Positions 876-63,900 of a DNA stretch of 64,000 nt are shown here, piece by piece. Every line of letters begins with the position of its first letter. Positions within the stretch are counted from its first letter, which is position 1. Source of the stretch: Chiloscyllium plagiosum (taxonomy: Eukaryota); the NCBI RefSeq assembly GCF_004010195.1, contig NC_057739.1:45514176-45578175 (forward strand), written 5' to 3'. Under the pieces are notes generated by a model. That model was not told where the DNA came from. It saw only the letters and a program-made list of their open reading frames with translations, and ran no database searches. Position numbers and translations under genes: made by a program.

Positions 876-1308
876 TCCTACTGCACTGTAATTAATCCCT
901 GAGGCTGAACAGTATACTCAGTAATCTCTTGGTTAATTAAAACTGAACTCCAGGTTTAGACAGTGTTTATCTGCTCCTGGGTTAATATTAACCAAACATC
1001 TCAAGCCAGAGATTAAGGTCAATCCTGCAGCACCAATAAAATGAGATCAATTATCCTGATTATTTACCTCAAAGGAACAGAGTGAGACTATTCAGCCTCA
1101 GTTACACCAGGATCCAAACCTTAATTCCATTCTCCTGGCTTGGCTCTATCTCACTTCATAACAGATAATCCTCTAATTGTCTTCATCCTACGGAGTCCAA
1201 GTCTATGTAAACCATCCTAATGATGTGGAGATGCCAGTGTTGGACTGGGGTGGACAAAGTTAAAAATCACACAACACCAGGTTATAGTCCAACAGGTTTA
1301 TTTGGAAG

Positions 1309-1343
1309 CACTAGCTTTCGGAGCGCTGCTCCTTCATCAGGTG
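1309..1343 (-). ncRNA. Minimal type-I hammerhead ribozyme motif in the Penelope terminal repeat
   Basis: Minus strand reads CAC CTGATGA A GGAGC AGC GCTCC GAA AGCT A GTG: intact core, 5-bp stem II, palindromic AGCT stem III, CAC/GTG stem I. Confidence 0.75.
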
Positions 1344-3142
1344 GTTGTGGAGGTTAAGACCATGTTCTTAGGATTTATTGCCAAAGGAGTCCAGTGTCAT
1401 GGAGTTGGGATACAGCAAACAATCTTAGATTAGACCAAAATGGACTCCACACTTTCGGCCAGCACTCAGGATACAGCAGTACACTTACGGGACACTCCCA
1501 AACAGGGAAGGTGACAAAACTACACCACGTACACGCACACCAAGAACAGGAAACAGGAGAAACTTGGCATCACCACCAGCAGTAGCCAAGCCCCCCGGCA
1601 CCATGGTTGAAAACATTATCACCACGGGGAAGTTGATCATCAACATATCAGACCACACCCTTCAACTGGAAGAGATCGAAGTTCTTAGCAAAGGGCTCAA
1701 TTTTTGCCCCATCACTAACGTGGACCCCATCAGTCTAGCAGCAGAGGAATTCATTAGACAGATAAGACTCTCAAGATGCCAGCAATGATCCCAATGACTC
1801 CACCAACGAACCAGAATAGTCATCACAAAGCATCCAAAGAGGAGCGACCAAAAAAGACGTCAACTTGGACCCCACCAGAGGGCCGCTGCCCTGGGCTTGC
1901 CATGTATGCTCAAACCATCAGGAAATATATAAATACCAGATTCCTCAGCCGCACCCACAATGTAGAGCAGAACATCACCCGATCACAGCACAACACCATC
2001 CAGGCTCTCAAACCCAATCACAATCCCATTGTCATCAAACCAGCAGATAAAGGAGGAGCCATTGTCATTCAGAATAGAACAGATTGCTGAAAGGAAGTGT
2101 ACCGACAACTGAACAACCAGGAACACTGCAAGCAACTACCAGCCGATCCAACCAAAGAACACACCTGTGAACTAAACACATTGATCAGGCCTTTGGATGC
2201 AATCCTTCAGAGTTCCCTACATGCCCTCATCCCACATACTTCTGGCGTAGGCAACTTCTACTGACTTCCAAAGATACACAAAGCCAACACAGCAGAATGT
2301 CCTGTTGTATCAGGCAATGGGACCCTGTGTGAGAACCTCTCTGGCAATGTCGAAGGCATCTTGAAACCCATTGTACAGTGGACCCCCAGCTTCTGTCGCG
2401 ACACTACAGATTTCTTAAGGAAACTCAGCACCAATGGAACAGTCGAACCAGGAAAATTCCTCATCACAATGGGTGTTTCAGCACTCTACACCAGCATCCC
2501 CCACAGCCTCAGTGCTCAGTACCAATAACTGCCAATCTCCAAGCTGCAACTCATCCATTTCATCCTTGACCACAATATTTTCACCTTTGACAACCAATTC
2601 TTCATCCAGACACAGAACAGCCATGGGGACCAAATTTACACCCCAATATGCCAACATTTTCATGCACAAGTTCGAACAAGACTTATTTTCTGTACAGGAC
2701 CTCCAACCAACACTTTCCACCAGATATATTGACGACATTTTCTTCCTCTGGACCCATGGTGAGGAGTCACTGAATATCAATGAGTTTCATCCCACCATCA
2801 GATTTACCGTGCACTACTCTCTACTATCTGTGTCTTTCTTAGACACAAGTATCTCCATCAAGGATGGACACCTCAGCACCTCACTGTACCACAAATCCAC
2901 AGATAATCGCATAATGTTACACTTCTCCAGCTTCCACCCAAAACATATTAAAACATCCCCCATGGACAAGCCTCCACATACACAGGTTCTGTTCAGATGA
3001 GGAATAATATGACGGACACTTGAAAGTGCTCAAGGATGCCCTCATAAGAACGGGGTACGATGCTCAACTCATCAACCGCCAGTTCCACAGCAAGAAACCA
3101 TAATGACCTCCTCAGGAGACAGACATAGGCTGCAACAGACAG

Positions 3143-3296
3143 AAGAAAGTGAGGACTGCAGATGTTGGAGATAGAGTCGAAAGTGTGGTGCTGGAAAAGC
3201 AAGAGAATCGACATTTTGGGCATAAGCCCTTCATCAGGAATCCTGTTCCTCGGATGCTGCCTGACCTGCTGTGCTTTTCCAGCACCACACTCAACT
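3143..3296. mobile_element. Short fold-back Penelope-derived element (family B) nested in the Penelope ORF
   Basis: Inverted arms gtgtggtgctggaaaagc / gcttttccagcaccacac; 13-bp direct repeat CTGCAACAGACAG at 3130-3142 and 3297-3309. Confidence 0.8.
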
Positions 3297-4714
3297 CTGC
3301 AACAGACAGGCTACCCCTCGTTGTCCAGTACTTCCCGACTATGCCATGTTCCTCGCAGCCTGCAACACATTATCCATGAGGATGAGTATCAAGCCAAGAC
3401 CTTCCCTGGGCCTCCACCTTTCGCCTTTAAATAACCACCAAACCTTAAACAGATCATGATCCGTAGCAAACTGCCCAGCCTACAGGACAGCAACACCGTA
3501 CAACCCTGCCCCAGCGGCTGTTACAAGATATGTCAGAGTATGGGGACACCTCCCACCACGTATACGGCGAGTACTCATGTGACTCGGCCAATGTTGTCTA
3601 TCTCATATGCTGCAGGCAAGGATGCCCTGAGGCATGGTACATTGGTGAGACCGAGCAGATGCTAGGACAGCGGGTGATTGGACACTGCACAACAACCACC
3701 GGGCAGGAATGTTCCTTCCCAGTCAGTGAAGACTTCAGCGGTTCGGGACATTTGGCCTCGGACCTTCAAGTGACCATCATCCAAGGTGGACTTCGAGACA
3801 AGCAACAACGCAGCGTGGCTGAGCAGAGGCTGATAGCCAAGTTCAGTACCCATGGGGATGGCCTCAGCCGGGACCTTGGGTTCATGTTACACTACAGGTG
3901 ACCCCACTGCACTACACACAGACAGACACACACACACAGACACACACTCCTACATACTCACACACCCGCGCAGACCCTCCCTCATACACAAGGTCTCATA
4001 TGCACACAATACACCTCCCACACTAACACCAACACATGCACCCTCTCGCACGTACCCCATAACACTCACACACACTTAACGAAGCATACACACACACAAT
4101 CACTTACATTCACACCCAAACACCCACACTCAAATGCACACTCACTCTGTTGCTCCTACATGCACACACATATAAGTTTATGGGGTGAATTTGTTTTTGC
4201 AGAATTACATTTTATTTTGTGAAGAAACTGCCTGAATCCATGTAAAACTCTAAAATCATGCAGAGGGTTTGTCAGTCTGACATAGCATTGGGACACAGAC
4301 AGATTCACACGTATTGTTTAAAAAGCTGAGCTAGCTTGAGAATGTAATTTAAAAGAGGTTCTGGGATTTACATATCAAAGACCAGAAACCAGCATATCCC
4401 ATTCTCAAAGATGAAAGTTTTAATCTAAGATTTTCTCCCTGACACTGGCCTCCTGTGGCTTTAAATTCTGTGAGCATGATCTTAACCTCCACAACCACTT
4501 GATGAAGGAAACTACTGCTTCCAAATAAACCTGATGGACTATAACCTGGTGTTGTGTGCTTCTTAACTGTCCTCGTAATTTAACCCTTTAAACCCTAGGA
4601 TCAGTCAGGTGACTGGGTGCTGCTGCCCCTCCAAGTCTGGCAGCTCCTCCCTGGGGGTGGGCTTGACTAACCCCCATACCCCCGCATGGCCTACAGCAGC
4701 TGATTGAATGTTGA

Positions 4715-6124: not shown

Positions 6125-6635
6125 ATTTGGATGATTTGGAGGAGCTGGCGTTGGACTGGCATGGACAAAGTTCAAAATCACACAGCACCAGGTTATAGTC
6201 CAACAGGTTTATTCGGAAGCACTAGCTTTTGAGGTGCTGCTCCTTCATCAGGTGGTTGTGGAGCAGGACCAGAAGACACAGAATTTATCACAAAAGCTTA
6301 GTATCACGGAGTTGTAATGATATGTTAAACAAACTTAGATTAAGTCTTGCATCTTTTAGGATGGGATACACTGGTTTAGACTCTTTAATATGTAAATTCG
6401 AGAACTCCTTTTAAGTTACATTTTCAAGGTGGCTTCAGTTTATCTAACAGTAGGTGTTATCTTAGCTCAGACAATGTATTAAAGCTGTAAACTTAAAGTC
6501 TGTCTCAATGTTGAGTCAGTTTTATTTCTAAAATGCTTCCAAGTAAACCTAAACCACCTGATGAAGGAGCAGCACTCTGAAAGCGAGTACTTCCAAATAC
6601 TTCCAAAACCTGCTGCTGTGTGATTTTTAACTTGA
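6125..6635. mobile_element. Non-autonomous fold-back Penelope family-A element
   Basis: Both ends match the terminal repeat of 1225-4570 in opposite orientations; degenerate hammerhead cores at about 6220-6255(-) and 6555-6590(+). Confidence 0.8.
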
Positions 6636-7175: not shown

Positions 7176-7584
7176 TTCCTGTGGTGACTTATTGTGATAG
7201 CCTGCCCATTGAGCATTCCCACTGACTGGCATCACCAGCTTTACCAGATTGGAACTTCCAGTCTGCTCATGTGGACAGGGTCAGGGTGTAGAAAGGACCG
7301 TAGTCTTGGAGCTGGGCACAATCTTTCCCTGTCACCGATTCTTGGAAATCACATCCTGTGTGTGTCCAACTACTTGCTGCCAATCCTTTCAAGGCAGTGA
7401 TGTTCTCTACAAAGTATCACTCAGTCAGAAACAGATCCTGGTTTGGGAAGAGCTCCCCCTCAACTGATGCTATGAGAATGCGAGTCCAATAAAGATCAGA
7501 GAATTCATCTCAAATCAGAAAAGCTGCTGAACAGCCCCATACTCCCCTCACACTGGTTTACTGTCAGTGAGCTATATACTGCAT

Positions 7585-8145
7585 TGGGAAATCAGTCAGG
7601 GTTCCTGCTTCTGATCACTGTCCACTGATCCCTGGGTTAGAGAGAGAGAAAGAGAGAGAGGGCAAATCAGTCAGCGTTCCTGCTCCTGATCACTGTCCAC
7701 TGATCCCTGGGTTAGAGAGAGAGAGGGGAGGGGGGAACTCAGCCAGGGCTCCTGCTCCTGATCACTGTACACTGATCCCTGGGTTAGAGAGAGAGAGAGA
7801 GAGAGAGGGCAAATCAGTCAGCGTTCCTGCTCCTGATCACTGTCCACTGATCCCTGGGTTAGAGAGAGAGAAAGAGAGAGAGGGCAAATCAGTCAGCGTT
7901 CCTGCTCCTGATCACTGTCCACTGATCCCTGGGTTAGAGAGAGAGAAAGAGAGACCCTGGATGCTGCCTGACCTGCTGTGCTTTTCCAGCAATAAAGTTT
8001 CAACTTTGATCTCCAGCATCTGCAGACCTCACTTTCTCCCCGGGTTAGAGATCCCTTGGATTGAGAGAGAGAGTGAGAGAGAGAGGGAAAATCGGTCAGG
8101 GTTCCTACTCCTGATCACTGTCCACTGAGCCCTGGGTTAGAGACA
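7585..8145. repeat. Tandem repeat of about 60-70 bp with embedded (GA)n, interrupted by a Penelope-B fragment (about 7956-8040)
   Basis: Unit aaatcagtcagcgttcctgctcctgatcactgtccactgatccctgggttagaga..., about 6 copies. Confidence 0.9.
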
Positions 8146-15834: not shown

Positions 15835-17858
15835 CCACACCCCTCACTGTGACACCCTGATATACCCCACACCCCTCACTGTGTCACCCTGATACATCCC
15901 ACACCCCTCACCATGACACCCTGATATGTCACACACCCCTCACTGTAATACTCTGATATTTCACACACTCCTCACTGTAACACTCTGATATACCCCTCAG
16001 ATTAACATTCTGATATATCCCACACCGTGACACCCTGATAGGTCACACACCCCTCACAGTAACATTCTGTATCCCACAGCCCTCACTGTAACACTCTGTA
16101 TCCAAAACCCCTCATTGTAACACTCTGATATACCCCACACCCCTCACCATGAAACCCTGATATGTCACACACCCCTCACTGTAATACTCTGATATACCTC
16201 ACACCCCTCAGATTAACATTCTGATATATGCCACACCGTGACACCCTGATAGGTCACACACCCCTCACTGTGACACTCTGATATTCCCCACACCACTCGC
16301 TGTGACACCATGATATACCCCACAGCCCTCACAGTCACACACTAATATACCCCACACACCCTCACTGTTTCACCCTGATATACCACACATCCCTCGCAGT
16401 GCCACTCTGATTTGTCCCACACCCATCGCTGTAACACCCTGATATATCCCACAACCCTCACTGTGACAGTCTGATATACCCCACACCCCTCAGATTAACA
16501 TTCTGATATACCCCACACCCCTCACCGTGACACCTGATAGGTCATACACCCCTCACTATAACACTCTATATCCCACACCCCTCACTGTAACACTCTGATA
16601 TTTCACACACCCCTCATTGTAACATTCTGAAAGACCCTTCAGCCCTCACCTGATCTGTCCTCGCACCGTCACTGTGTCACCCTGATACACTGTACACCCT
16701 CACTGTAACACTCTGATATACCCCACCCCCCTCACCACACTGTCACACCCTGATATGTCCCACACCCCTCACTGTCACACCCTGATATATCCCACCCCCC
16801 TCACTGTGTCACCCTGATATACCCCACCCTCCTCACTGTGTCACCCTGATATACCTCACACCCCTCACTGTAACACTGATATACCCTACACGCCTCACTG
16901 TAACACTGATATACCCCACACCCCTCACTGTAACGCACTGATATACCCCACAGCCCTCACGGTAACACTCTGATATACCCCACACCCCTCACTGTAACAC
17001 NNNNNNNNNNNNNNNNNNNNNNNNNNNNNNNNNNNNNNNNNNNNNNNNNNNNNNNNNNNNNNNNNNNNNNNNNNNNNNNNNNNNNNNNNNNNNNNNNNNN
17101 NNNNNNNNNNNNNNNNNNNNNNNNNNNNNNNNNNNNNNNNNNNNNNNNNNNNNNNNNNNNNNNNNNNNNNNNNNNNNNNNNNNNNNNNNNNNNNNNNNNN
17201 NNNNNNNNNNNNNNNNNNNNNNNNNNNNNNNNNNNNNNNNNNNNNNNNNNNNNNNNNNNNNNNNNNNNNNNNNNNNNNNNNNNNNNNNNNNNNNNNNNNN
17301 NNNNNNNNNNNNNNNNNNNNNNNNNNNNNNNNNNNNNNNNNNNNNNNNNNNNNNNNNNNNNNNNNNNNNNNNTCCTGATATACCCCACACACCCTCACCG
17401 TGACACTCTGAAATACCCCACACCCCTCACTGTAACACCCTGATATATCCCACACCCCTCACCATGACAACCTGATATGTCACACACCCCTCACTGTAAT
17501 ACTCTGATAATTCACACACTCCTCACTGTAACACTCTGATTTACCCCTCAGCCCTTATTTTAAAATCCTGATATGTCCTCACACCCCTCACTGTGTCACC
17601 CTGATACACTGTACACCCTCACTGTAACACACTGATATACCCCACACCCCTCACTGTAACACACTGATATACCCCACACCCCTCACTGAAACACACTGAT
17701 ATACCCCACAACCCTCACCACACTGTCACACTCTGATATACCCCACACCCGTCACGGTAAAACCCTGATATACCCCACACCCTCATTGTAACACCCTGAT
17801 ATACCGTTCACTCCTCACTGTCAAACTCTGATATGTTGCACACCCCCCACTCTAACAA
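15835..17858. repeat. 33-35 bp satellite (acccctcactgtaacactctgatataccccac) spanning an assembly gap
   Basis: Dozens of diverged copies on both sides of the N run. Confidence 0.95.
17001..17372. other. Assembly gap (372 N)
   Basis: Run of N. Confidence 1.
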
Positions 17859-18085
17859 GGGAAAGTGAGGACTGCACAGACTGAAGATCAGAGTCGAAAA
17901 GTGTGGTGCTAGAAAAACACAGCAGGTCAGGCAGCATCCGAGGAGCAGGAGAGTCAACATTTCAGGCATAAGTCCTTCATCAGGAATGTGACACTCTCAT
18001 AAAGGACTTATGCCCAAAACATCGACTCTTCTGCTCCTCAGATGTTGCCTTTCCTGCTGTGCTTTCCAGCACCACATTTGTTGAC
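17858..18085. mobile_element. Short fold-back Penelope family-B element
   Basis: gggaaagtgaggactgc...gtgtggtgctagaaaaac / gctttccagcaccacat inverted arms; two degenerate hammerhead cores. Confidence 0.8.
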
Positions 18086-18449
18086 CCTCACTGTAACACT
18101 CTGACAGGGCTTTGTTATAGCCCCTCGAGGGTAGTGTTCATCACTCCCTAAAAATTTTAATTTTTTCTTTCCTGTGTCTAAGTAGAAAGTTTTTCATCCT
18201 CCAGACTGATGGTTTCTTTATTTCCCCTGTTTATTGGTCAGCGCAGAGTGCTCATCCATGATCTAGTGCTGTATCACAGTCTGTTTCTGTTCCTGCCAAA
18301 CTTGCTAAGTAATGCCTTGTCAGAAATAAATGCTAACCCTCCCTGGCTACTGTGGCAGGACATCCCAAAGTGTTGTGATTCAGTCATTTGGCTGGTTTTC
18401 TTGAAAGCCAATGTTAATGAGCTATGGGTTTCTATGTGTTAGCCAAATG

Positions 18450-20997: not shown

Positions 20998-26696
<5,699 letters not shown>

Positions 26697-29724: not shown

Positions 29725-38843
<9,119 letters not shown>

Positions 38844-39149
38844 TTCGCCTTCCCGCCGCCCGGCCGCCGGAACTGTGGGCCGCACGTCTACTCACACCAT
38901 CAGAGGGCGGAGCCTCACCGTCTCCCACAACACACCGCGCCGCCACGTCGGCGGCTGGGGGGCGGGACCACCCCTGCAGACGGTGATGGTCTCGGTCAAG
39001 GGGCGGGGCTAGGTCAGACGGAGGGACGAGATGGGAGGCGGGGCTAGATGGCGAACTGCGTGGGACAAAGGTCAGGGGGGCGGAGCTAGATCAGGGCGCA
39101 TGACTTGATCACGGGGCGGGGCTAAAACAGGGGCGGAGCTAGAGGCTGG

Positions 39150-40200
39150 TTTGATGTGGAGGTGCTGGTGTTGGTCTGGGGTGGACAAAGTTAAAAATCA
39201 CACACCACCAGGTTATGGTCCAACAGGTTTAACTGGAAGCACCAGCTATCAGAGAGCTGCCCCTTAGTCAGGGAGCTAGTGGGGTTCGATCATAGGATAC
39301 AGAGTTTATAACTGATGCGACGTATTGAACAAATCTAGATTGCTGTTAAGTCTTTAATCACTTACAATGGAAATATATGTTTCGATTGATTAATATTCAT
39401 TAAATCCCAGAACTTCTTTCAAGTCACAGTCCCAAGATAACCGAAGGTTTTATAAAAAAGACAATGGATTAAAGGTGTGAGGTTACAGTCTGACCCAACC
39501 TTGAGCCAGACTGGTTTTATTTCCAAAGTATGAACTTATAAAATGTCACATGGACTGACTGCCTACAGATTGTGTTTTTTTTAACAAAATAGAATGTTTC
39601 TACAAAAAAAATCTGCAAATGCAAATTCTCCCCATAGACTGATGTGTGTGTGTGTGAGGGAAAGAGGGAGAGTGAGTGTGTGTGGAACAGAGTGAGAGTG
39701 AGTAAGTGTGTGTGGGTGCGTATGTGTTTGTGGTAGAGAGGGAGTGAGTATTTGTGTGCATGTGAGAGTGCGTGTGTGCATGCTTGATAGTGTGTGCAGA
39801 GTGTGACAGAGTATATGTCTGTGTGAGGATGTGTACGTGAGTGTGGGTGTGTGTGTCTGAGAGAGTGTGTGTATGAGAGAGCGTCTGTGTGAGTATGTTA
39901 ATGTGATTGTGTGTAAGTGTATGTGTTTGTGTGCTTGTGTGTGAGTGAGAGTGTATAGTGTAGTGGAGTCACCTGTAGTGTGATATGAATCCAAGAACCT
40001 GGTTGAGGCCATCCTCATGGATACTGAACTTGGTTATCAGCCTCTGCTCAGTGACTCTGTGTTCTTGCATATCCTGAAGACCACCTTGGAGGATGGTCAC
40101 CTGAAGATCTGAGCCAAATGTCCTTAAAGTGTTCCCTGACTGGGAAGGAACATCCCTATCTGGCAATTGTTGCGAGGTGTCCATTCATCAGTTGTTATAT
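39150..40200 (-). mobile_element. 5'-truncated Penelope family-A element
   Basis: ORF 39969..40184(-) SDLQVTILQGGL...EQRLITKF...GLNQVLGFISHYR matches the C-terminus at 3530-3901; (TG)-rich tract and terminal repeat. Confidence 0.9.
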
Positions 40201-41289: not shown

Positions 41290-42730
41290 AAAGAGAACAA
41301 AGAACGTTACAACACAGGAACAAGTCCTTCAGCCCTCCAAGCCTACGCCAATCCAGATCCTCTATCTAAATCTACTGTCTATTTTCTAAGTATCCCTCTG
41401 CTCCCTGCCCATTCACGTATCTGCCTAGATACATCTTAAATTATGGTGTCACCTCCACTGGCAACGTGTTCCAGGCCCCCACAACCCTCTGCGTAAAGAA
41501 CTTTCCATGCATATCTCCCCTAAACCTTTCTCCTCTTACTTTGAACTTGTGACCCCTTGTAATTGAGTTCCCCCACTCTGGGAATATGTTTCTTGCTATC
41601 CACCCTGTCTACTCTTTTCATGATTTTGTAGATCTCAACCACTGCCTTCTTTCTAATGAACATAATCCTAATCGACTCAACCTTTCATCATAGCTAGCAC
41701 CCTCCAAACCAGGCAACATCCTGTGAACCTCCTCTGCACCCTTTCCAAAGCATCCACATCCTTTTGGTAATGTGGCGACCGGAACTGTATGCAATATTCG
41801 AAATGTGGCTGAACCAAAGTCTTATACAATTTTAACATGACTCAGTACCCCATCTGATGAAGGCAAATATGCCATATTCCTTCTTGACCACTATATTGAC
41901 TTGCGTTGCCAACTTCAGGGTACAATAGACCTGAACACCCAGATCTCTCTGTACATCAATTTTCCACAGGACTTTTCCAATTACTGTATAGTTCGCTCTG
42001 GAATTGCATCTTCCAAAATGCATCATTTCACATTTTTCTGGATTGAACTTCATCTGCCATTTCTCTGCCCAACTCTCCAATCTATCTATATTCTGCTGTA
42101 TTCTCTGACAGTCTCCTTCACTATCTACTACTCCACCAATCTTAGTGTCATCTGCAAACTTGTTAATGAGGCAATCTACACCTTCCTCTAAATCATTTAT
42201 GTATATCACAAACAACAGTGGTCCCAACACAGATCCCTGTGGGACATTACTGGTCACAGGTCTCCATTTTGCGAAGCTCCCTTCCACTACTACTCTCTGT
42301 CCCCTGTTACCCAACCAGTTCTCTATCATCTAGCCGGTACACTTTGGACCCCATGTGACTTCACCTTCTTCATCAGCCTACCATGGGGAACCTTATCAAA
42401 CACTGTACTAAAGTCCATGTATATGACATCTACATCCCTTCCCTCATCAATCAACTTTGTCATCTCTTCAAAGATTTTTATCAGGTTTGTAAGACATGAC
42501 CTTCCCTGCACAAAACCATGCTGTCTATCACTGATAAGCCTGTTTTCTTCCAAATGGGTATATATCCTACCCCTTAGTAACTTCTCCAGTAGCTTCCCTA
42601 CCACTGATGTCAGGCCCACCAGTCTATAATTACCTGGAGTATCCCTGCTTAAACAAGGGGACAACATTAGCAATTCTCCAGTCCTCTGGGACCTCCCCCG
42701 TTTTCAAGGATGCTGCAAAGATATCTGTAG
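41290..42730 (-). mobile_element. CR1 LINE RT and 3' end
   Basis: VPQGSVLGPLLFVIYINDL, KFADDTK, QHGFVQGRSCLTNL. Confidence 0.92.
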
Positions 42731-43439
42731 GGAAGACCATGTCTTACAAACCTAATAGAATGTTTTGAAGAGGTGACAAAGTTGATTGATGAGGAAGGAA
42801 TGTAGATATCTGTTAATATGCCAACTCTGTAGCCCACGTTGGTCACTTTGGGGCCCTGGAACACACATTGTTTCCTTTTTAGGCATACGCCTGCCTTAGA
42901 AAAATGCCTTAGGACTATATCCAGGTTCTCTACGTGTTCCTCATTAGTTTTCCATGATCTAGGTAAATGATGACCTCAGGTAGACCTTGCGAAATGTTCT
43001 CCATCGTCTGCTGAAAAATCCCAAATGGCAATCTGGTACATTGGTACAAGACTTTATAGGTATTAATTGTCGCACACTTCTGGGAATCCTGGTCTAAATA
43101 CAATCGCAAGTTAAGCTTGGCTCATGCCCAGCTTCATAAAGACCAAATTTGCATATAAATCCTCTATCTATGGGATCAGGTATTTATCCAGCTGTAGAAA
43201 GCAGTTTACCATTTGTTAAAATCCCACAAATGTGGACTGATCATCAGGCTTCAAAATCAGTACAACAATACTCATTCCACAAGTTGGACTGGTTTGATTA
43301 TTCCTTCACTTTCCAGCCTTCTGATTTCTGTTTCGACCAGACTGGCAGATGGAGGGTTATAGAATATTGATAAAATAGAGACACACTATGCTGCAGCAAA
43401 GGAGGCAAGTTGGAATGACTTCAGATGTGTTGAGTGTCA

Positions 43440-47720: not shown

Positions 47721-50700
47721 TTCCAACGACCTTCTCATTAACAATACACTTTTCAGCAAGAATTCCGAGTTTTAGTTATTGTGCAGCAACTCTCTCTGCT
47801 CCATTCCCATCCAGATTCAGAAAACAGAGCCCAGAGGCAGCTATGGGTTCGTGCACATCGTGAAGCGTATTAACGATGGGAGGACATTTGCCATGAAAGT
47901 GGTAAGACTGGTCTCCACAGTGACACTGGTATCCATGGTAATATGACACACACATCCACAGTGGACCCAACAAGTGACATGGTGACATAACGTGTGTATC
48001 CATGGTGACATAACGTGTGTATCCATGGTGATGTGACTCATGTATCCATGGTGACATAATGTGTGTATCCATGGTGATGTGACTCATGTATCCATGGTGA
48101 CATAATGTGTGTATCCATGATGATGTGACTCATGTATCAATGGTGACATAATGTGTGTATCCATGATGATGTGACTCATGTATCCATGGTGACATAATGT
48201 GTGTATCCATGGTGATGTGACTCATGTATCCATGGTGATGTGATTCATGTATCCATGGTGATGTGACGTGTGTATCCATGGTGATGTGACTCATGTATCC
48301 ATGGTGACATAACATGTGTATCCATGGTGATGTGACGTGTGTATCCATGGTTATGTGACTCATGTATCCATGGTGACATAATGTGTGTATCCATGGTGAC
48401 ATAATGTGTGTATCCATGGTGATGGGACTCATGTATCCATGGTGACATAACATGTGTATCCATGGTGACATAACATGTATATCCATGGTAACATAATGTG
48501 TGTATCCATGGTGATGTGACTCATGTATCCATGATGACATAACGTGTGTATCCATGGTGATGTGACTCATACATCCATGGTGACATAATGTGTGTATCCA
48601 TGGTGACATAATGTGTGTATCCATGGTGATATGACATATGTAACCCCAGTGACATGATACAGGTTTGACAGTGACTTTACATAGGTATCCATGATAACAG
48701 GACAGTATTCATGTTGATATGAAACTGCTATCCACAGGACATGACATATAATGAGTTTCCATAGTTAGGTATGATATTGACAGGACTTTCGAAGTAGGAG
48801 CATGAGCAAATCTTCCAGCCCTGAACCTGTTCTGCTAACCAAAAGAATCATGACTGACCTTTTATTTCATCTGCATTTTTACACACTAACCTCAAACACC
48901 TTAATTCCCATCTGTCCAAAACCTATTGATCTCTATTTTGAATATACTCAACAAATTTGAAAGGGTTCAGAAAAGATTTACAAGGATGTTGCCAGGGTTG
49001 GAGGATTTGAGCTATAGGGAGAGGCTGAACAGGCTGGGGTTGTTTTCCCTGGAGCATCGGAGGCTGAGGGGTGACCTTATAGCGATTTACAAAATTATGA
49101 GGAGCATGGATAGTCTTTTCCCTGGGATCAGGGAGTCCAGAACTAGAGGGCATAGGTTTAGGGTGAGAGAGGAAAGATATAACAGAGACCTATGGGGCAT
49201 CTTTTTCACACAGAGGGTGGTACGGGTATGGAATGAGCTGCCAGAGGAAATGGTGGAGGCTGGTACAATTGCAACATTTAAGAGGCATTTGGATGGGTAT
49301 ATGAATAGGAAGGGTTTGGAGGGATATGGGCTGGGTGCTGGCAGGTGGGACTAGATTGGGTTGGGATATCTGGTCAGCATGGATGGGTTGGACTGAAGAG
49401 TCTGTTTCCATGCTGTACATCTCTATGACTGTATAACCACACGTCCACAGCTCTCTGGTGTAAAGAACACTGCGAAATGAAGTAATTTTTCATCACATCA
49501 GCTCTAATTGCCGACCCCTCAATTCGTTAACTGAAAATGTGTTTACTTGAAGAATGTGCTGGGAATCCAGAATTCCAGGCAAATGTCCTCCGAATGTCAA
49601 TTCAAATTGCAACGTGGTTGATGGTGAAATATTATTCAGTAAAAATCTGGACTTTAAAACTTTTCAATTGTCATTTTTAAAAAAATAATGTATCTGGTTT
49701 ACTAATGTCCTTTAGAGAAGGAATGCTCCCATCCTTTTCCTGTCTGACCAACATGTGACTCCAGATCTGCATGAACTAGTTGACTCCCAATTGCTTTCTG
49801 AAATGGCTTAGAGAGCCACTCTGTTCGAGGGCACCCAATAGATGGACAAAGTTTGGTCCTGCTTATCAACTGGAGTTGCCCCTCATTCAGTTTTAATGCT
49901 GATAAGGCCATTCAAGAACAGATGTAGGAATCAGTTAATAAAGAACAAGATGAATGAGTCAGGGATGAGCAAACAGATATTTCAGTCAGTTTAAATGAAG
50001 AGGGTAGAAAGAGACTTATGAAGAGTATAGTCCCGACGTGGATAATAGGTAGACCTGAGCAAGAGTACTGTACAGTCCTGGTCATCGCATCACAGAAAGA
50101 ATGTGGTGACGCTGGAAATGACAGGAGATTTATGACAATGTTATTTGGAATGGAGAATTTTAGTGTTAATGAAAAGCTGGATATGCTGTGTTTGTTTACT
50201 TTAAGACAGAGAAGGCCGAAATTGGATTTCTGTGAAATGAATAAAATTATCAGGAGTGAGATAGGTTCTTCCTATCCACTCTATTTTTATTAGCTGTGAG
50301 ATCAATAAGTAAGGAGACAGATTTAAAATAACTGGTAGAAAGATTAGAGGAGAGTTTAAAATGACTTTCACCCAGAGCAGGTGGTACTGAGCAAGGGAGT
50401 TGAACAGTTTACCAGGACTTCTGCCAGCAAGTCATGATGGTGCAGGAGGGTAGGTGGAGCAGTGAACACTCCCTTCTTATGGATTAAAAAAAAAGGTGTG
50501 TTAAAAACACTGAAGGAGAGCTGGTGGGAGAGGGAGCACAGAGACCAAAGATTCCAACCCAATGTTTTAAATTTGAAAGAGTAGAGCACACCTTACATCT
50601 CCATCAATTATTCTTTAAATGTGAGACAAAGACGAAATCCCTGCTGATCTCATTGTTACAACCACTGCTACTGTCTTCAAAGGAGGATACAAAGTGGTCT

Positions 50701-53700: not shown

Positions 53701-56700
53701 CATCAACTCGGTGAAGGACGCTCTTTGGTCTGTCCAAAACCTGTTGATCTTCCAGCTGAAGGAGTTGACCCTGACTGAGTGTTGCAGAGTGGCACATTCC
53801 AAGGTCCAGGACTACATGTTGAGGGACATGCTGAAGTTTGGGGCAGCTTTCGCCAAGGCGCAGTGGGGAAAGACCACTGTGTAAGGTCTGCCTGCCTAAG
53901 AAGAACAGGGGACCAACTCAGTAATCAGGCCCCGCTGACGCCTCAGCTAAATATCTGGATGGTCAATGTACAGACTTGTACATACGAATGATTAATTCCG
54001 AACTCTGTATGTAAAGAAATGCAATGTGTGCATAAGAGTGACTTGACCAATTGTATAGATATCAAAATAATTTTTTGCATAAAGTATATTTTTGAAATTT
54101 AAAAAAAAGTGAGGTGTGGCATGTGAGGGCATGAGTTACACAGTTAATGACAGGGCCTGGAGAGTGTTGTCAAACAAAGAGACATGGATGTGCAGGTGCA
54201 TAGTTCCTTGAAAGTGGAGTCACAGAGAGATGAGGTAGTGAAGAAGGCATTTGGCACACTTGCTTTCATTGGTTAAAATTTTAGATGTGAAAGTTGGAAT
54301 GTCATGTTGCTGCTTTACAGGACATTGGTGAGGCCACTTTTAGAATATTGGAGGCAATTCTGTCCTTCTGCTACAGGAAAGATCTTGTTAAACTTGAGAG
54401 GATGCAGGAAAGATTTACAAGGCTGTTGCTGAGTCCAGACGTTTCAGTTATATGGAAAGGCTGAATAAGCTGAGTTCTCTGAAGCATTGGAGACTGAGGA
54501 GTGACCTTATAGAAGTTTATAAAATCATAAGAGGCATGAATAGGGTGAATAGGTGAGATCTTTTTCCCAGGGTGGGGGAGTCCAAAACTAGAGGGCATGG
54601 GTTTAAGGTGAGAGGGGAAAGATCTTAAAAAGAACCTAAGGGGTTACTTTTTCACAAGGAGAGTGGTGCACGCATGGAACGAGCTGCCAGAGGAAGTGGT
54701 AGAGGTGAGTACAATTATAACATTTAAAAGGCATCTGGATTAGTATATGAATAGGGAGGGTTTAGAGGTATATGGGCCAAATTGGGACTAGGTCAGATTG
54801 TGATATCTGGTCAGAGTGGACAAATCGGACAGAAGGTCTGTTTCCGTGCTATATAATTCTATAACCCAATGTAATTCTATATTGGCTGCAATCCTTTTGA
54901 CTATATTCCATTTTTACCCATCTCCTAAAACTAGGTTGAATTTATGGATGAGGCAACTGCCAATCGTGCTGTGGAAGAAGTAAGTATGTAGCCTAAGTTG
55001 CAGGGGTCAGTGTACATGACAGGTTCAGCTATAATGCACAGAGTGTAACATCGGGGTCAAGGAAGCTTTACTCAGTGTCTATCCATGTACTATGGATAAC
55101 TAGAAGTGTGTGGGGACAATGTAGTGAGAACTTTACTCTGCATCTAACACTGTTGACCTTGAAGTGGCTGATGGGGACATTGTAGAGTGAAGAAAACAAA
55201 GAATTGTGGATGTTGAAGATCTGAAACAAATAAAATCAGAAATTGTCAGAAAAATACAGCAGCTCTGGCAGTATCTGTGGAGGTAAAACATCATCAATGT
55301 TTCAACTATAGTGACTCTTCTTCAAAACTGATAAACTGACAAGAAGGTGGTATTTTTATTGGTGACACTGACTGCGGTTGGGAATAGTTTCTTCGGGAGG
55401 TGCTGAAAAATGAGTGATAGGTGGTGATGGAATCCAGAGAAAGAGAAGGTAGGCATGCAAAGGGATTGTTAATTGCAAGCCAGAGAAGAAGAGAAGAGAA
55501 TAGGTGAAAATGAAGTTATGAGTAATTGATGACTGTGTTGAAAGGAACCCATGTCATGATGGGACCTGGGGGTGTGGGGAAAGGGTAATAGACGTCATGG
55601 GAGGTGCTCAATATTTAAAATTGTTAAACTTGATGTTGCGTCCTGAAGACTGTGTCAGGTTCTTATGCAGAAACTGAGATGGTGTTTTTCTAGGTTGTGT
55701 TGCTGAAGCACTGCAGTAAGTCTGAGACAAAAATCTTGAAATAGGAACATTGTGATGTGCTGAAGTGGCAAGGAACTGGAAGCTCAGAGTCATTTTTATG
55801 GACTGACTGAGTTTATTCTGCAAAGCAGTCACCCAGTCTGCATTTGTCTCCCCAATGTCGAGGAGACCGCACTGAACAATGAATACAGTAGATTAGGTTG
55901 TGTGAAGTGCAGGCAAATTACTGCTTCACCTGGAAGGTGTGTCTGGGACCTTAGATATTGAGGGGGTAAAGTACAGCATTGCCTGTTTCACTTCTACATT
56001 GGGGTGATAAAACACAGACTGTGTGACTACTTCACAGAACACTGATGTTCTGTCTGTAAGAATGATCCTAATTGTTTACTTCAACGCACCATCATGTTTC
56101 TATGCCATTATATCTCTCTCAGGCCTCCTGCTGTGCTCCAGCGAGGTTCAACACAAGCTGGAGGAACAACATCTCATTTTCCACTTGGGACCTTACTCAG
56201 CCTTCAGGACTCAGCATTGAGTTCAATAATTTTATAGCATGACATGGGTTGTTTTCAGCACAGCCAATCCAATTTCAACTTTTAACCCATAGTATTATCT
56301 ATCTGGCTTCTTGTCTCTGGCTAATTGTCAACAATCCCTTTGCCTCTCTCTCTGGGTTTTGCCTCCACCTATCTGTTCACTACTTTTCCTGCCCACCGCC
56401 CGCCATCAGCATATATACCACCTTTTTCTGGTTCTTATCAGTTCTGGAGAAGAGTCACTGAACTTGAAACAGTAAATCTCTTTTCTCTCACAGTTGCTGC
56501 CAAATGTGCTGAGTTTACCCAGCAATTCTATTTTTGTTTCTTACAGTGTAGAGTAAACTTTACTCTAGATCAATCTATACTGTCCCTTTCTGGGAGTGGT
56601 TGATGGGGACAATGCAGAGGCACCTTGAAAAGATGGCCCAGAGGCCAGTGTCCTATCACCAAGTCACAGTTTATTTACACATGCTTAGTACATGGACTCT

Positions 56701-60919: not shown

Positions 60920-63900
60920 AATGCAATAAGGGGTATGTCGGGTTCCAAAAAATCGATTGTGTTAGTGGAGTCTCTAGTCCGAGGTACAGACAGACGTTTC
61001 TGTGGCCACCAGCGAAAACTCAGAATGGTGTGTTGCTTCCCTGGTACCAGGATTAAGGATGTCTCAGAGAGGGTACAGAATATTATCAAGGGAGAGAGGG
61101 GCCAGGAGGAGGTCATTGTACACATTGGAACCAATGACATAGGAAAGGAAAAGGTTGAGATTCTGAAGGGAGATTACAGTGAGTTAGGCGGGAATTTAAA
61201 AAGGAGGTCCTTGAGAGTAGTAATATCTGGATTACTCCCGGTGCTACAAGCTAGTGAGGGCAGGAATAGGAGGATAGAGCAGATTAATACATGGCTGAGG
61301 AACTGTTGTATGGAAGAAGGATTCACATTTTGGATCTTTGGAAGTTCTTTTGGGGTAGAAGTGACCTGTACAAGAAGGATGGATTGCACCTAAATTGGAA
61401 GGGGACTAATATACTGGCAGGGAGATTTGCTCGAGCTGCTCGGAGGATTTAAACTAGTAAGGAGGGCAGAGGGTGGGACCCAGGGAGATAGTGAGGAAAG
61501 AGATCAATCTGAGACTGGCACAGTTGAGAATAAAGGTGAGTCAATCAGTCAGGGCAGGCAGGGACAAAGCAGAGAACAAGGTAGGACTGATAAATTAAAC
61601 TGCATTTATTTCAGTGCAAGGCAGATAAACTCAGGGCATGGTTAGTAATGTGGGAATGGGGTATCATAGCAATTATAGAAACATTGCTCAGGGATGGACA
61701 GGACTGGCAGCTTAATGTTCCAGGATACAAATGCTACAGGAAGGAGAGAAAGGGAGGCAAGAGAGGAGGGGGAACTGGTGTTTTTGATTAGGGATAACAT
61801 TACAGCATCCAGGGAAGTTATTTGGGTGGAACTGAAAATAAGAAAGGGATGATCACATTATTGGCATTGTATTATAGATCCCCTAATAGTCAGAAGGAAA
61901 TTGAGAAACAAATTTGTAAGGAGATCTCTGTTATCTGTAAGAATAATAGGGTGGTTATGGTAGGGAATTTTAACTTTCCAAACATAGACTGGGACTGCCA
62001 TAGTGTTAAGGGTTTAGATGGAGAGGAATTTGTTAAGTGTGTACAAGAAACTTTTCTGATTCAGTATGTGGATGTACCTGCTAGAGAAGGTGCAAAACTT
62101 GACCTATTGTTGGGAAATAAGGCAGGGCAGGTGACTGTGGTGTCAGTGGGAGAGCACTTTGGGGCCAGCGACCATAATTCTATTAGTTGTAAAATAGTGA
62201 TGGAAAAGGATAGACCAGATCTAAAAGTTCTAAATTGGAGAAAGGCCAATTTTGACGGTATTAGGCAGGAACTTTCAAAAACTGATTGGGGGCAGATATT
62301 CGCGTGTAAAGGGACGGCAGGAAAATGGGAAGCCGTCAGAAATGAGATAACAAGAGTCCAGAGAAAGTATATTCCGTCAGGGTGAAAGGAAAGGCTGGTA
62401 GGTATAGGGAATGCTGGATGACTAAAGAAATTGAGAGTTGATTAAGAAAAAGAAGGAAGCATATGCAAGGTATAGACAGAATAAATCAAGTGAATCCTTA
62501 GAAGAGTATATAAAGGCAGTATATACATATAGGAGTATACTTAAGAGAGAAATCAGGAGGGCATAAAGGGGACATGAGATAGGTTTGGCAAATAGGGTTA
62601 GGGAGAATCCAAGGGGTTTTTAGAAATACATTAAGGACAAAAGGTTAGCTACGGAGAGAAGAGGGCCCCTCAAAGATCAGCAAGGCGGCCTTTGTGTGGA
62701 GCCGCAGGAGATAGGGGAGACACTAAATGAGTATTATGCATCAGTATTTATTGTGGAAAAGGGCATGGAAGATGTAGAATGTAGGGAAATAGATGAAAAA
62801 TGTCCATATTGCAGAGGAGGAAGTGCTGGATGCCTTGAAACACATAAAAGTGGATAAATCCCCAAGATCCCCTAGAACTCTGCGGGAAGCTAGGGAAGTG
62901 ATTGCTGTTCCTCTTACTGAGATATTTGTGTCATCGATAGTCACAGGTGAGGTGCCAGAAGATTGGAGATTGGCTAACATGGTGCCACTGTTTAAGAAGG
63001 GTGGTAAGGACAAGCCAGGGAACTATAGACCAGTGAGCCTGATGTCAGTGGTGGACAAGTTGTTGGGGGGAATCCTGAGGGACAGGATGGACATGTATTT
63101 GGAAAGGCAAGGACTGATTAGGGATAGTCAACATGGCTTTGTGCGTGGGAAATCATGTCTCAATCATAATCTTGGTTGAGTTTTTTGAAGAAGTAACAAA
63201 GAGGATTGATGAGGGTAGAGTGGTAGATGAGATCGATGTGGACTTCAGTAAGGTGTTCAACAAGGTTCCCCATGGGAGACTGGTTAGCAAGGTTAGATCT
63301 CATGGAATACAGGGAGAACTAGCCATTTGGATACAGAACTGGCTCAAAGGTAGAAGACAGAGGGTGGTGGTGGAGGGTTGCTTTTCAGACTGGAGGCCTG
63401 TCACCAGTGGTGTGCCACAAGAATCAGTGCTGGGTCCACTGCCCTTTGTCATTTAAAGAAATGATTTGAATGTGAACATAGGAGTTAACGTTAGCAAGAT
63501 TGTAGATGACACCTAAATTGGAGGTGTGGTGGACAGCGAAGAAGGTTACTTCAGTGTACAACAAATCTTGATCAGATGAGCTAATGTTTCGAGTCTAAGC
63601 TTTAACAAAGGGTCAGTTAGACTCGAAACGTCAGCTCTTTTCTCTCCTGACAGATGCTGCCAGACCTGCTGAGATTTTCTAGTGTTTTCTCTTTTTTTTT
63701 ATAGTTCAGAGTATTGAGTACAGGAGTTGGGAGATCATGTTGCGGCTGTACAGGATATTGGTTAGATCACTTTGGATAGTGTGTGCAATTCTGGCGTCCC
63801 TCTTATCGGAAGGATGTAGTTGAAAGGGTTCAGAAAAGATTTCCAAGGATATTGCCAGGTTTGGAGGATTTGAGTATAGGGAGTGGCTGAATAGGCTGGG

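Follow-up and report, generated by a model that had tools for sequence, protein, structure and literature searches.

In the twin priming of L1 elements, a second cDNA is primed from the other target strand, which results in an inversion; each of the two cDNAs is copied from a different part of one RNA. Retroviral minus-strand strong-stop DNA is a short cDNA running off the RNA 5′ end. Among Penelope-like elements, insertions combining an inverted terminus, a one-sided tail and a target-site duplication (TSD) have already been described (PMC3846280; PMC8557442; PMC2377424). According to these accounts, among them those of Pen2a_Av (PMC3846280) and of the D. virilis form (PMC2377424), they carry an inverted, 5′-truncated copy at the 5′ end with a head-to-head junction, a tail of 30–40 bp at one end and an outer TSD. 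The origin of the inverted or tandem ends and of the one-sided tail is named there as an open question (PMC8557442; PMC2377424). For PAc, a Poseidon element of Anolis, two adjacent internal start sites of the reverse transcriptase (RT), ~110 nt into the RNA below the hammerhead, are reported to define the tail. Both target strands are cut and extended, a dimer is predicted, and ribozyme cleavage is described as not needed (PMC11167929).

The window analysed here, a stretch of 64,000 nt from Chiloscyllium plagiosum, contains six short fold-back units. Each is a minus-then-plus pair of copies of one Penelope-like (Neptune-type) terminus, and two families, A and B, are represented. Opposed-terminus units of 145–230 bp had been proposed in the initial annotation; all six were confirmed, with inserts of 147–227 bp. 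Positions within the terminus are counted from +1, the base that immediately precedes the hammerhead. In the first unit, the left TSD of 13 bp (3130..3142) agrees with the right TSD (3297..3309) at 13/13 positions. Between them, a family-B arm with tail (3143..3241, minus strand, tail at ~3143–3176) starts with +1 at 3241 and shows an internal deletion of ~30 nt and a damaged hammerhead core. It is joined to a plus-strand family-B arm without tail (3241..3296), which covers +38 to ~+95. The empty site of this unit is visible in paralogous copies of the host repeat, 13/14 of which show a single TSD motif next to an unbroken left flank. A young family-B fold-back (33892..34089) consists of arms +47..+129 and +9..+96 within a 15-bp TSD, and the two family-A fold-backs are flanked by TSDs of 14 bp (25308..25512, with 33 nt of unrelated filler at the junction) and 12 bp (37938..38108, with a left arm reaching barely beyond the tail). 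The direct repeats annotated for these four units were recovered at 3130/3297, 33892/34075 (14/15), 37938/38097 (12/12) and 25308/25499 (12/14). Two further repeats fared less well. The one expected near 17850/18086 was found at 17845/18086 with 11/14 matches; it flanks a family-B fold-back (17845..18099) with arms from −1 and +5 and the tail on the left, and is weak because it lies within a neighbouring tandem-repeat tract. This C/A-rich tract (16925–17860) contains open frames on both strands and adjoins the unit, inside which (17860–18085) an intact minimal hammerhead core is found on the minus strand. The repeat given as 36353/36567 belongs to a family-B fold-back (36353..36585) with arms from +13 and +10 and a degraded TSD; by eye it agrees with 36566–36585 in 15/20 positions, while the register at 36567 yields only 4/20. 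Empty sites in paralogous host-repeat copies were also seen for the units at 36353 (8/9) and 33892 (3/4).

Larger and smaller relatives of these units occur in the same window. A head-to-head family-A pair of 500 bp (6134..6633), one-tailed and flanked by a TSD of 12 bp, represents the next size in the series, and a single-arm family-B stump with tail (7955..8039, plus strand) is flanked by a 15-bp TSD. A third related terminus family is present at 63578–63700, 55248–55300 and 56450–56520, where its ribozyme region forms a short inverted pair at 63578–63637. An inverted repeat of 80 nt with a 193-nt spacer (42442–42794) lies beside fragments of the RT of a different LINE (Pfam RVT_1) and is possibly a twin-priming inversion of that element. 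Weak Pfam matches without a passing stretch at 48133–48708 (minus strand) and 7571–8125 (plus strand), to Binary_toxB (below cut-off) and DPBB_1, lie in probably repetitive frames and are likely due to chance. A search of a phage collection with the window gave no match.

The first unit was inserted into the reading frame of a now decayed family-A element of Neptune type (1223..4568, plus strand), whose translation shows RT, a CxxxCxxC linker and GIY-YIG. This host has its own inverted, tail-bearing 5′ terminus (1223–1420) and a 3′ terminus ending at 4568; a TSD around 1223–4568 was not recovered, and its broken frames were not scored by Pfam. In translations inspected by eye, the parent ORFs of both families encode a Penelope-type RT and, at the C terminus, a GIY-YIG endonuclease, preceded by a CX4CxxC linker. 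Family-B termini were found joined to the ORF start, the RT and the endonuclease. A CX2-5CxxC linker is given as a mark of Neptune or Nematis (PMC8557442). Judged from sequence features, the parents appear to be endonuclease-bearing (EN+) Penelope-like elements of Neptune type, the linker being common to Neptune and Nematis. The family-B ORF starts ~40 nt beyond the tail, so that the coding transcript, too, has this terminus as its 5′ end. A predicted minimal hammerhead with core, stem II, GAAA and a palindromic helix III is present in the long copies of either family.

Abundance was estimated from a genome sample of 160 segments of 10 kb, taken at round coordinates of large contigs (72 kb of N), together with the window. 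In these 1.66 Mb, 342 family-B and 109 family-A arms were found, 451 in all. The density of ~59 pairs per Mb (90 pairs outside the window in 1.53 Mb) extrapolates to roughly 2 × 10^5 pairs per genome; a few pairs counted as B belong to the third related family, and the L090 pair was counted twice owing to a local duplication. Of 109 cases of neighbouring arms not more than 120 bp apart, 99 were oriented head-to-head (70 in family B, 29 in family A), the others being tail-to-tail (5) or on the same strand (5). A TSD score of at least 7 was reached by 43/68 B and 15/28 A pairs away from segment edges, compared with 1/150 and 0/150 swapped-flank controls. Direct repeats were thus found far more often than chance matches would allow. 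Among young pairs the proportions rose to 19/21 (B) and 9/12 (A); the 25/68 B and 13/28 A pairs without a scoring TSD were mostly older copies. TSDs of family B mostly measure 12–16 bp, and the median insert is ~205 bp. Several stumps classified as single retain an inverted remnant of 7–21 nt between TSD and arm (L076:8950, L169:9364, L119:4531, L050:2513). The number of fold-backs is accordingly a lower bound, the second arms of such stumps being too short for BLAST. Family-B fold-backs also occur within or beside family-A termini (L110:8100–8572; L125:3674–4018).

The tail of 33–35 nt is present on exactly one arm in 87 of 96 non-edge pairs (60/68 B, 27/28 A). Long single copies have it in 29/65 (B) and 12/26 (A) cases, about 45%, so that an independent choice by each arm would produce one-tailed pairs only about half of the time. 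The excess is significant in both families (binomial p 3e-11 for B, 1e-7 for A). The consistent position of the tail on the left arm, as first annotated, holds for 6/6 units of the window and fails in the genome sample (28 left and 28 right in B, 11 left and 15 right in A). The rule is that one arm only has the tail, on a random side (39 left, 43 right). Longer TSD-validated pairs, with gaps of up to 3.7 kb, likewise have one tail in 16/17 cases. As the same one-tailed, TSD-flanked form extends up to insertions of kilobase length, the stumps represent the short end of a series. The suggestion that they are a stereotyped product of Penelope integration is supported by this common architecture and by the RT/GIY-YIG parents. 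The units are probably head-to-head Neptune-type termini, enclosed by a TSD and produced in one integration in which both cut strands were primed near the RNA 5′ end. That two separate insertions became neighbours by chance or by later rearrangement has a negligible probability: the family is very abundant, yet the orientation bias, the TSDs relative to controls, the one-tail rule and the empty paralogous sites refute this for the TSD-bearing majority.

The arms stop preferentially at +1. In family B, 144 arm starts lie at −5..+15, 6 at −45..−11 and 66 at +16..+50, while 65 copies extend past −60; the corresponding numbers in family A are 48, 3, 15 and 26. Single-arm starts were taken from the first mapping and paired-arm starts from a remapping, with starts of long pairs left out. 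Among single stumps flanked by a TSD, 19/26 start at −4..+9. The starts spread over −5..+15, more broadly in A (mode +6/+7), and end-trimming is needed to explain this spread. Upstream, 61/68 long copies of family B have a conserved TATA-like motif at −31 to −33, and 22/23 of family A have TATAAAT at −30 to −32; the copies counted had been chosen beforehand for a motif within −45..−18, which leaves only the tight spacing informative. The +1 context in family B fits an initiator consensus, and +1 sits 32–37 nt above the hammerhead cut site.

An independent test used the 30 best copies of the family-B ORF start. Of these, 27 were readable upstream; none (0/27) extended beyond −13, and 19 began at −6..+22. 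Twenty of the 30 proceed from a variable breakpoint in the ORF into a second terminus in head-to-tail arrangement, which begins at +1 or +2 in 19/20. These partial tandems are often surrounded by a TSD as a whole, and no splice signals were seen at their joints. In 15/20 (the set being L208, L210, L211, L213–L220, L222, L225, L227, L229, L230 and L233–L236), the terminus is preceded by C. Such partial tandems suggest that many element RNAs ended prematurely and that the RT jumped between templates, and their start at +1 is as expected if the cDNA first ran off the 5′ end of the RNA and then jumped. On these grounds, +1 would be the transcription start of the element RNA. A pile-up of molecule starts was found nowhere in the one informative run of raw RNA reads, in which the ORF was almost without reads.

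The main rival also assumes priming on two strands, and takes +1 as a position where the RT halts strongly or the RNA is processed; priming would then have occurred at the 3′ terminus, and the stumps would be very severe 5′ truncations. That +1 coincides in both families with the 5′ limit of hammerhead helix I agrees with it, as does the D. virilis intron reported to end at that position (PMC4209133). A second, smaller accumulation of starts at +32..+41 (28 in B), near the cut site, points in the same direction, although this bump (+33/+38) is confounded by short repeats common to +1..+7 and +34..+42, which explain the junctions as well as hammerhead cleavage does. Against a stall, the RT passes +1 in the 65 B and 26 A long copies, yet never reached beyond −13 in the ORF-start copies. 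A splice acceptor at +1 was ruled out, no AG preceding it in the long copies, and the family-A TATA box lies at the expected distance from +1. A stall or processing site at +1 is therefore considered unlikely.

Next in order is self-priming, in which a cDNA, or an antisense RNA (PMC3846280), folds back and is copied into the second arm. It was put forward in the Discussion of PMC3846280, and palindromic or microhomologous junctions are indeed common. Variants common to both arms would also follow from it. At a polymorphic site with a ratio of 32:28, both arms agreed in 30/30 young pairs (15.1 expected), a set that includes pairs from junction-biased sampling. Rare alleles were common to both arms in 40/247 cases (5.2 expected), and this concordance could be inflated by subfamily structure or gene conversion. 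It indicates the same source for both arms and fits one RNA molecule as well as two RNAs of one locus. A self-copied arm, however, must be a sub-interval of its template, whereas in 27/60 B and 12/28 A pairs the tail is on one arm and the further 5′ reach on the other; in at least one of the 27 B cases, that of the 3130 unit, this is merely an effect of its internal deletion. Copying of a cDNA on itself cannot give pairs in which the tail arm is the shorter one at the junction. The antisense-template version is less directly excluded, and self-priming as a whole is regarded as very unlikely.

Non-autonomous propagation, in which hairpin units of a retrozyme- or MITE-like class are transcribed and re-inserted whole, fits the density of pairs and the recurrence of some junctions. 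RNA data could be read in the same way. In one poly(A) single-cell run, 1841 reads mapped to a family-B locus, on both strands and nearly exclusively to the termini; fold-back joints were spanned by 8 and 13 of them (at family level, from many loci). A second run gave none. Letter differences of the reads are confounded by paralogues. Since the reads stem from many loci, they indicate passive transcription of the family and not editing. The junctions themselves are highly varied, with microhomology of 0–5 nt, short trimming or filler. Even the commonest one, +1/+38, for which loci were specifically selected, combines with the tail on either arm (8 and 6 cases) and with several subfamilies, and hence arises repeatedly and not by unit copying. 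A strand-biased A-to-G scar between arms is absent in aggregate (198 against 206). The largest imbalances of transition differences between arms occur in the pairs L071:9263 and L064:3169 (1:8 and 9:2) and could be due to chance, CpG decay or editing scars.

The ribozyme content also speaks against such a class. The units had been called ribozyme-bearing, and hammerhead-derived sequence is indeed present, but the minimal core is intact in only 1/6 window units. In the sample, 36/70 B and 21/29 A pairs lack an intact core altogether, and just 7/99 pairs retain two, then on opposite strands. An Rfam scan of the window gave no match. Tandem arrays are lacking, the sizes grade into long insertions, and no sign of units being copied as units was found. 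A MITE would be a homogeneous unit with symmetric termini, and the ends here are asymmetric and the junctions varied. The non-autonomous, retrozyme-like class put forward initially is not supported, in view of the head-to-head orientation (99 against 5 same-strand neighbours), the mostly broken ribozyme and the lack of an upstream promoter-like motif; whole-unit copying has a very low probability. In the best reading, the stumps are dead-end products and neither retrozymes, MITEs nor a new element class.

Three of the window units, at 33892, 36353 and 37938, are located in intron 1 of SURF4 (33526..38795, minus strand; coding part of exon 1 at 38843–38796, exon 2 from 33525). SURF4 was recognized by a Pfam match; exon 1 was placed with the help of a short sequence motif and of the splice sites visible in the DNA. 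SURF2 exons (23500–23630, plus strand) and SURF4 (33340–38843, minus strand) face each other in the window, as in the Surfeit cluster. A CpG-rich stretch (38001–40000) lies near SURF4 exon 1. Intronic hairpins of 20–45 bp had been anticipated, and strong folds are predicted for these units. The predicted stems of ~43 bp at the 33892 unit (z = −11.1) and of ~21–25 bp in the third fold (z = −3.5) fall within this range; the one at the 36353 unit, ~70 bp (z = −10.5), is longer. If transcribed with the intron, such duplexes would be candidate substrates of ADAR or Dicer.

The preferred reading, integration primed on both target strands, may be detailed as follows. The endonuclease would make a staggered cut of 12–16 nt, corresponding to the TSDs. 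One target strand would prime at an outer site (+126/129), giving the arm with tail, and the other at an inner site (~+90–97), giving the arm without tail; a coordinated use of the two start sites would account for the one-tail rule. The in vitro data on start sites and strand cleavage come from a Poseidon element, not from a Neptune. Each cDNA would run off the RNA 5′ end at +1, ~31 nt below the TATA or TATA-like motif. The two cDNA 3′ ends would then be joined by a putative repair route that leaves the observed microhomology of 0–5 nt, trimming or filler. Failure of the second cDNA would yield a single-arm stump, a jump of the run-off cDNA to another RNA end a partial tandem, and priming at the 3′ copy of the terminus a classical long insertion. 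The stumps have no promoter-like motif upstream; they should be dead ends with passive transcription only.

A more far-reaching version is offered tentatively, as a proposal that may or may not hold. Integration would be obligately two-handed: a dimer would assign the two start sites to the two target strands, using one RNA or RNA pair, and the fate of the strong-stop-like run-off cDNA would generate all inverted, solo and partial-tandem forms. If the two-handed version is true, a partial tandem rebuilds the promoter, and hundreds of thousands of stumps form a fossil record of integration, seeding introns with double-stranded RNA. In practice, the stumps place many short duplexes in introns, and an annotator can readily mistake them for MITEs, SINEs or microRNA hairpins.

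Among the known systems, the Pen2a_Av and D. virilis insertions are closest, and the stumps are the same in their inverted truncated terminus, one-sided tail, outer TSD and head-to-head junction. They differ in that both copies measure 50–130 nt without an ORF, and in their extrapolated number (PMC3846280; PMC8557442; PMC2377424). The TSDs are 12–16 bp here, against 8–10 bp in the account of Adineta. A fixed stop at +1, demonstrated here, is not found in the accounts of Pen2a_Av and D. virilis as far as these describe the insertions. With PAc, the stumps would have in common two adjacent internal start sites below the hammerhead and the extension of both strands; beyond the findings given for that element, which belongs to another clade, are the inverted pairs, the proposed coordinated site use, the probable 5′-end run-off and the template jumps (PMC11167929). 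Unlike in L1 twin priming, both stump cDNAs copy the same 5′ 95 nt.

Dual hammerheads of Schistosoma, located on opposite strands 100–700 bp apart, are of minimal type I with a palindromic helix III, as here (PMC4209133). They are probably the same structures seen via the ribozyme motif; the description of these pairs does not present them as TSD-flanked insertions with a tail rule (PMC4209133). Non-LTR retrozymes are also non-coding, derive from a Penelope-like terminus and contain a type I hammerhead. According to the available description, they form head-to-tail tandems with a complete ribozyme per unit, whereas the stumps are inverted pairs with mostly broken cores (bioRxiv 10.64898/2026.07.22.740005). 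Beyond the papers cited, a literature search that covered few subscription papers and older reviews yielded nothing on 5′-end run-off, coordinated two-site priming, twin priming, template jumps or shark Penelope hairpins, and the accessible part of PMC12910113 contains nothing further on such insertions. The stumps thus represent a known form of insertion in its minimal variant, to which the present analysis adds the +1 stop, the spacing of the promoter-like motif, the jumps to +1 and the variants common to both arms. They provide quantitative rules, namely one tail per insertion, a stop at +1, arms from the same source and jumps to +1, which are testable in the in vitro system established for PAc (PMC11167929).
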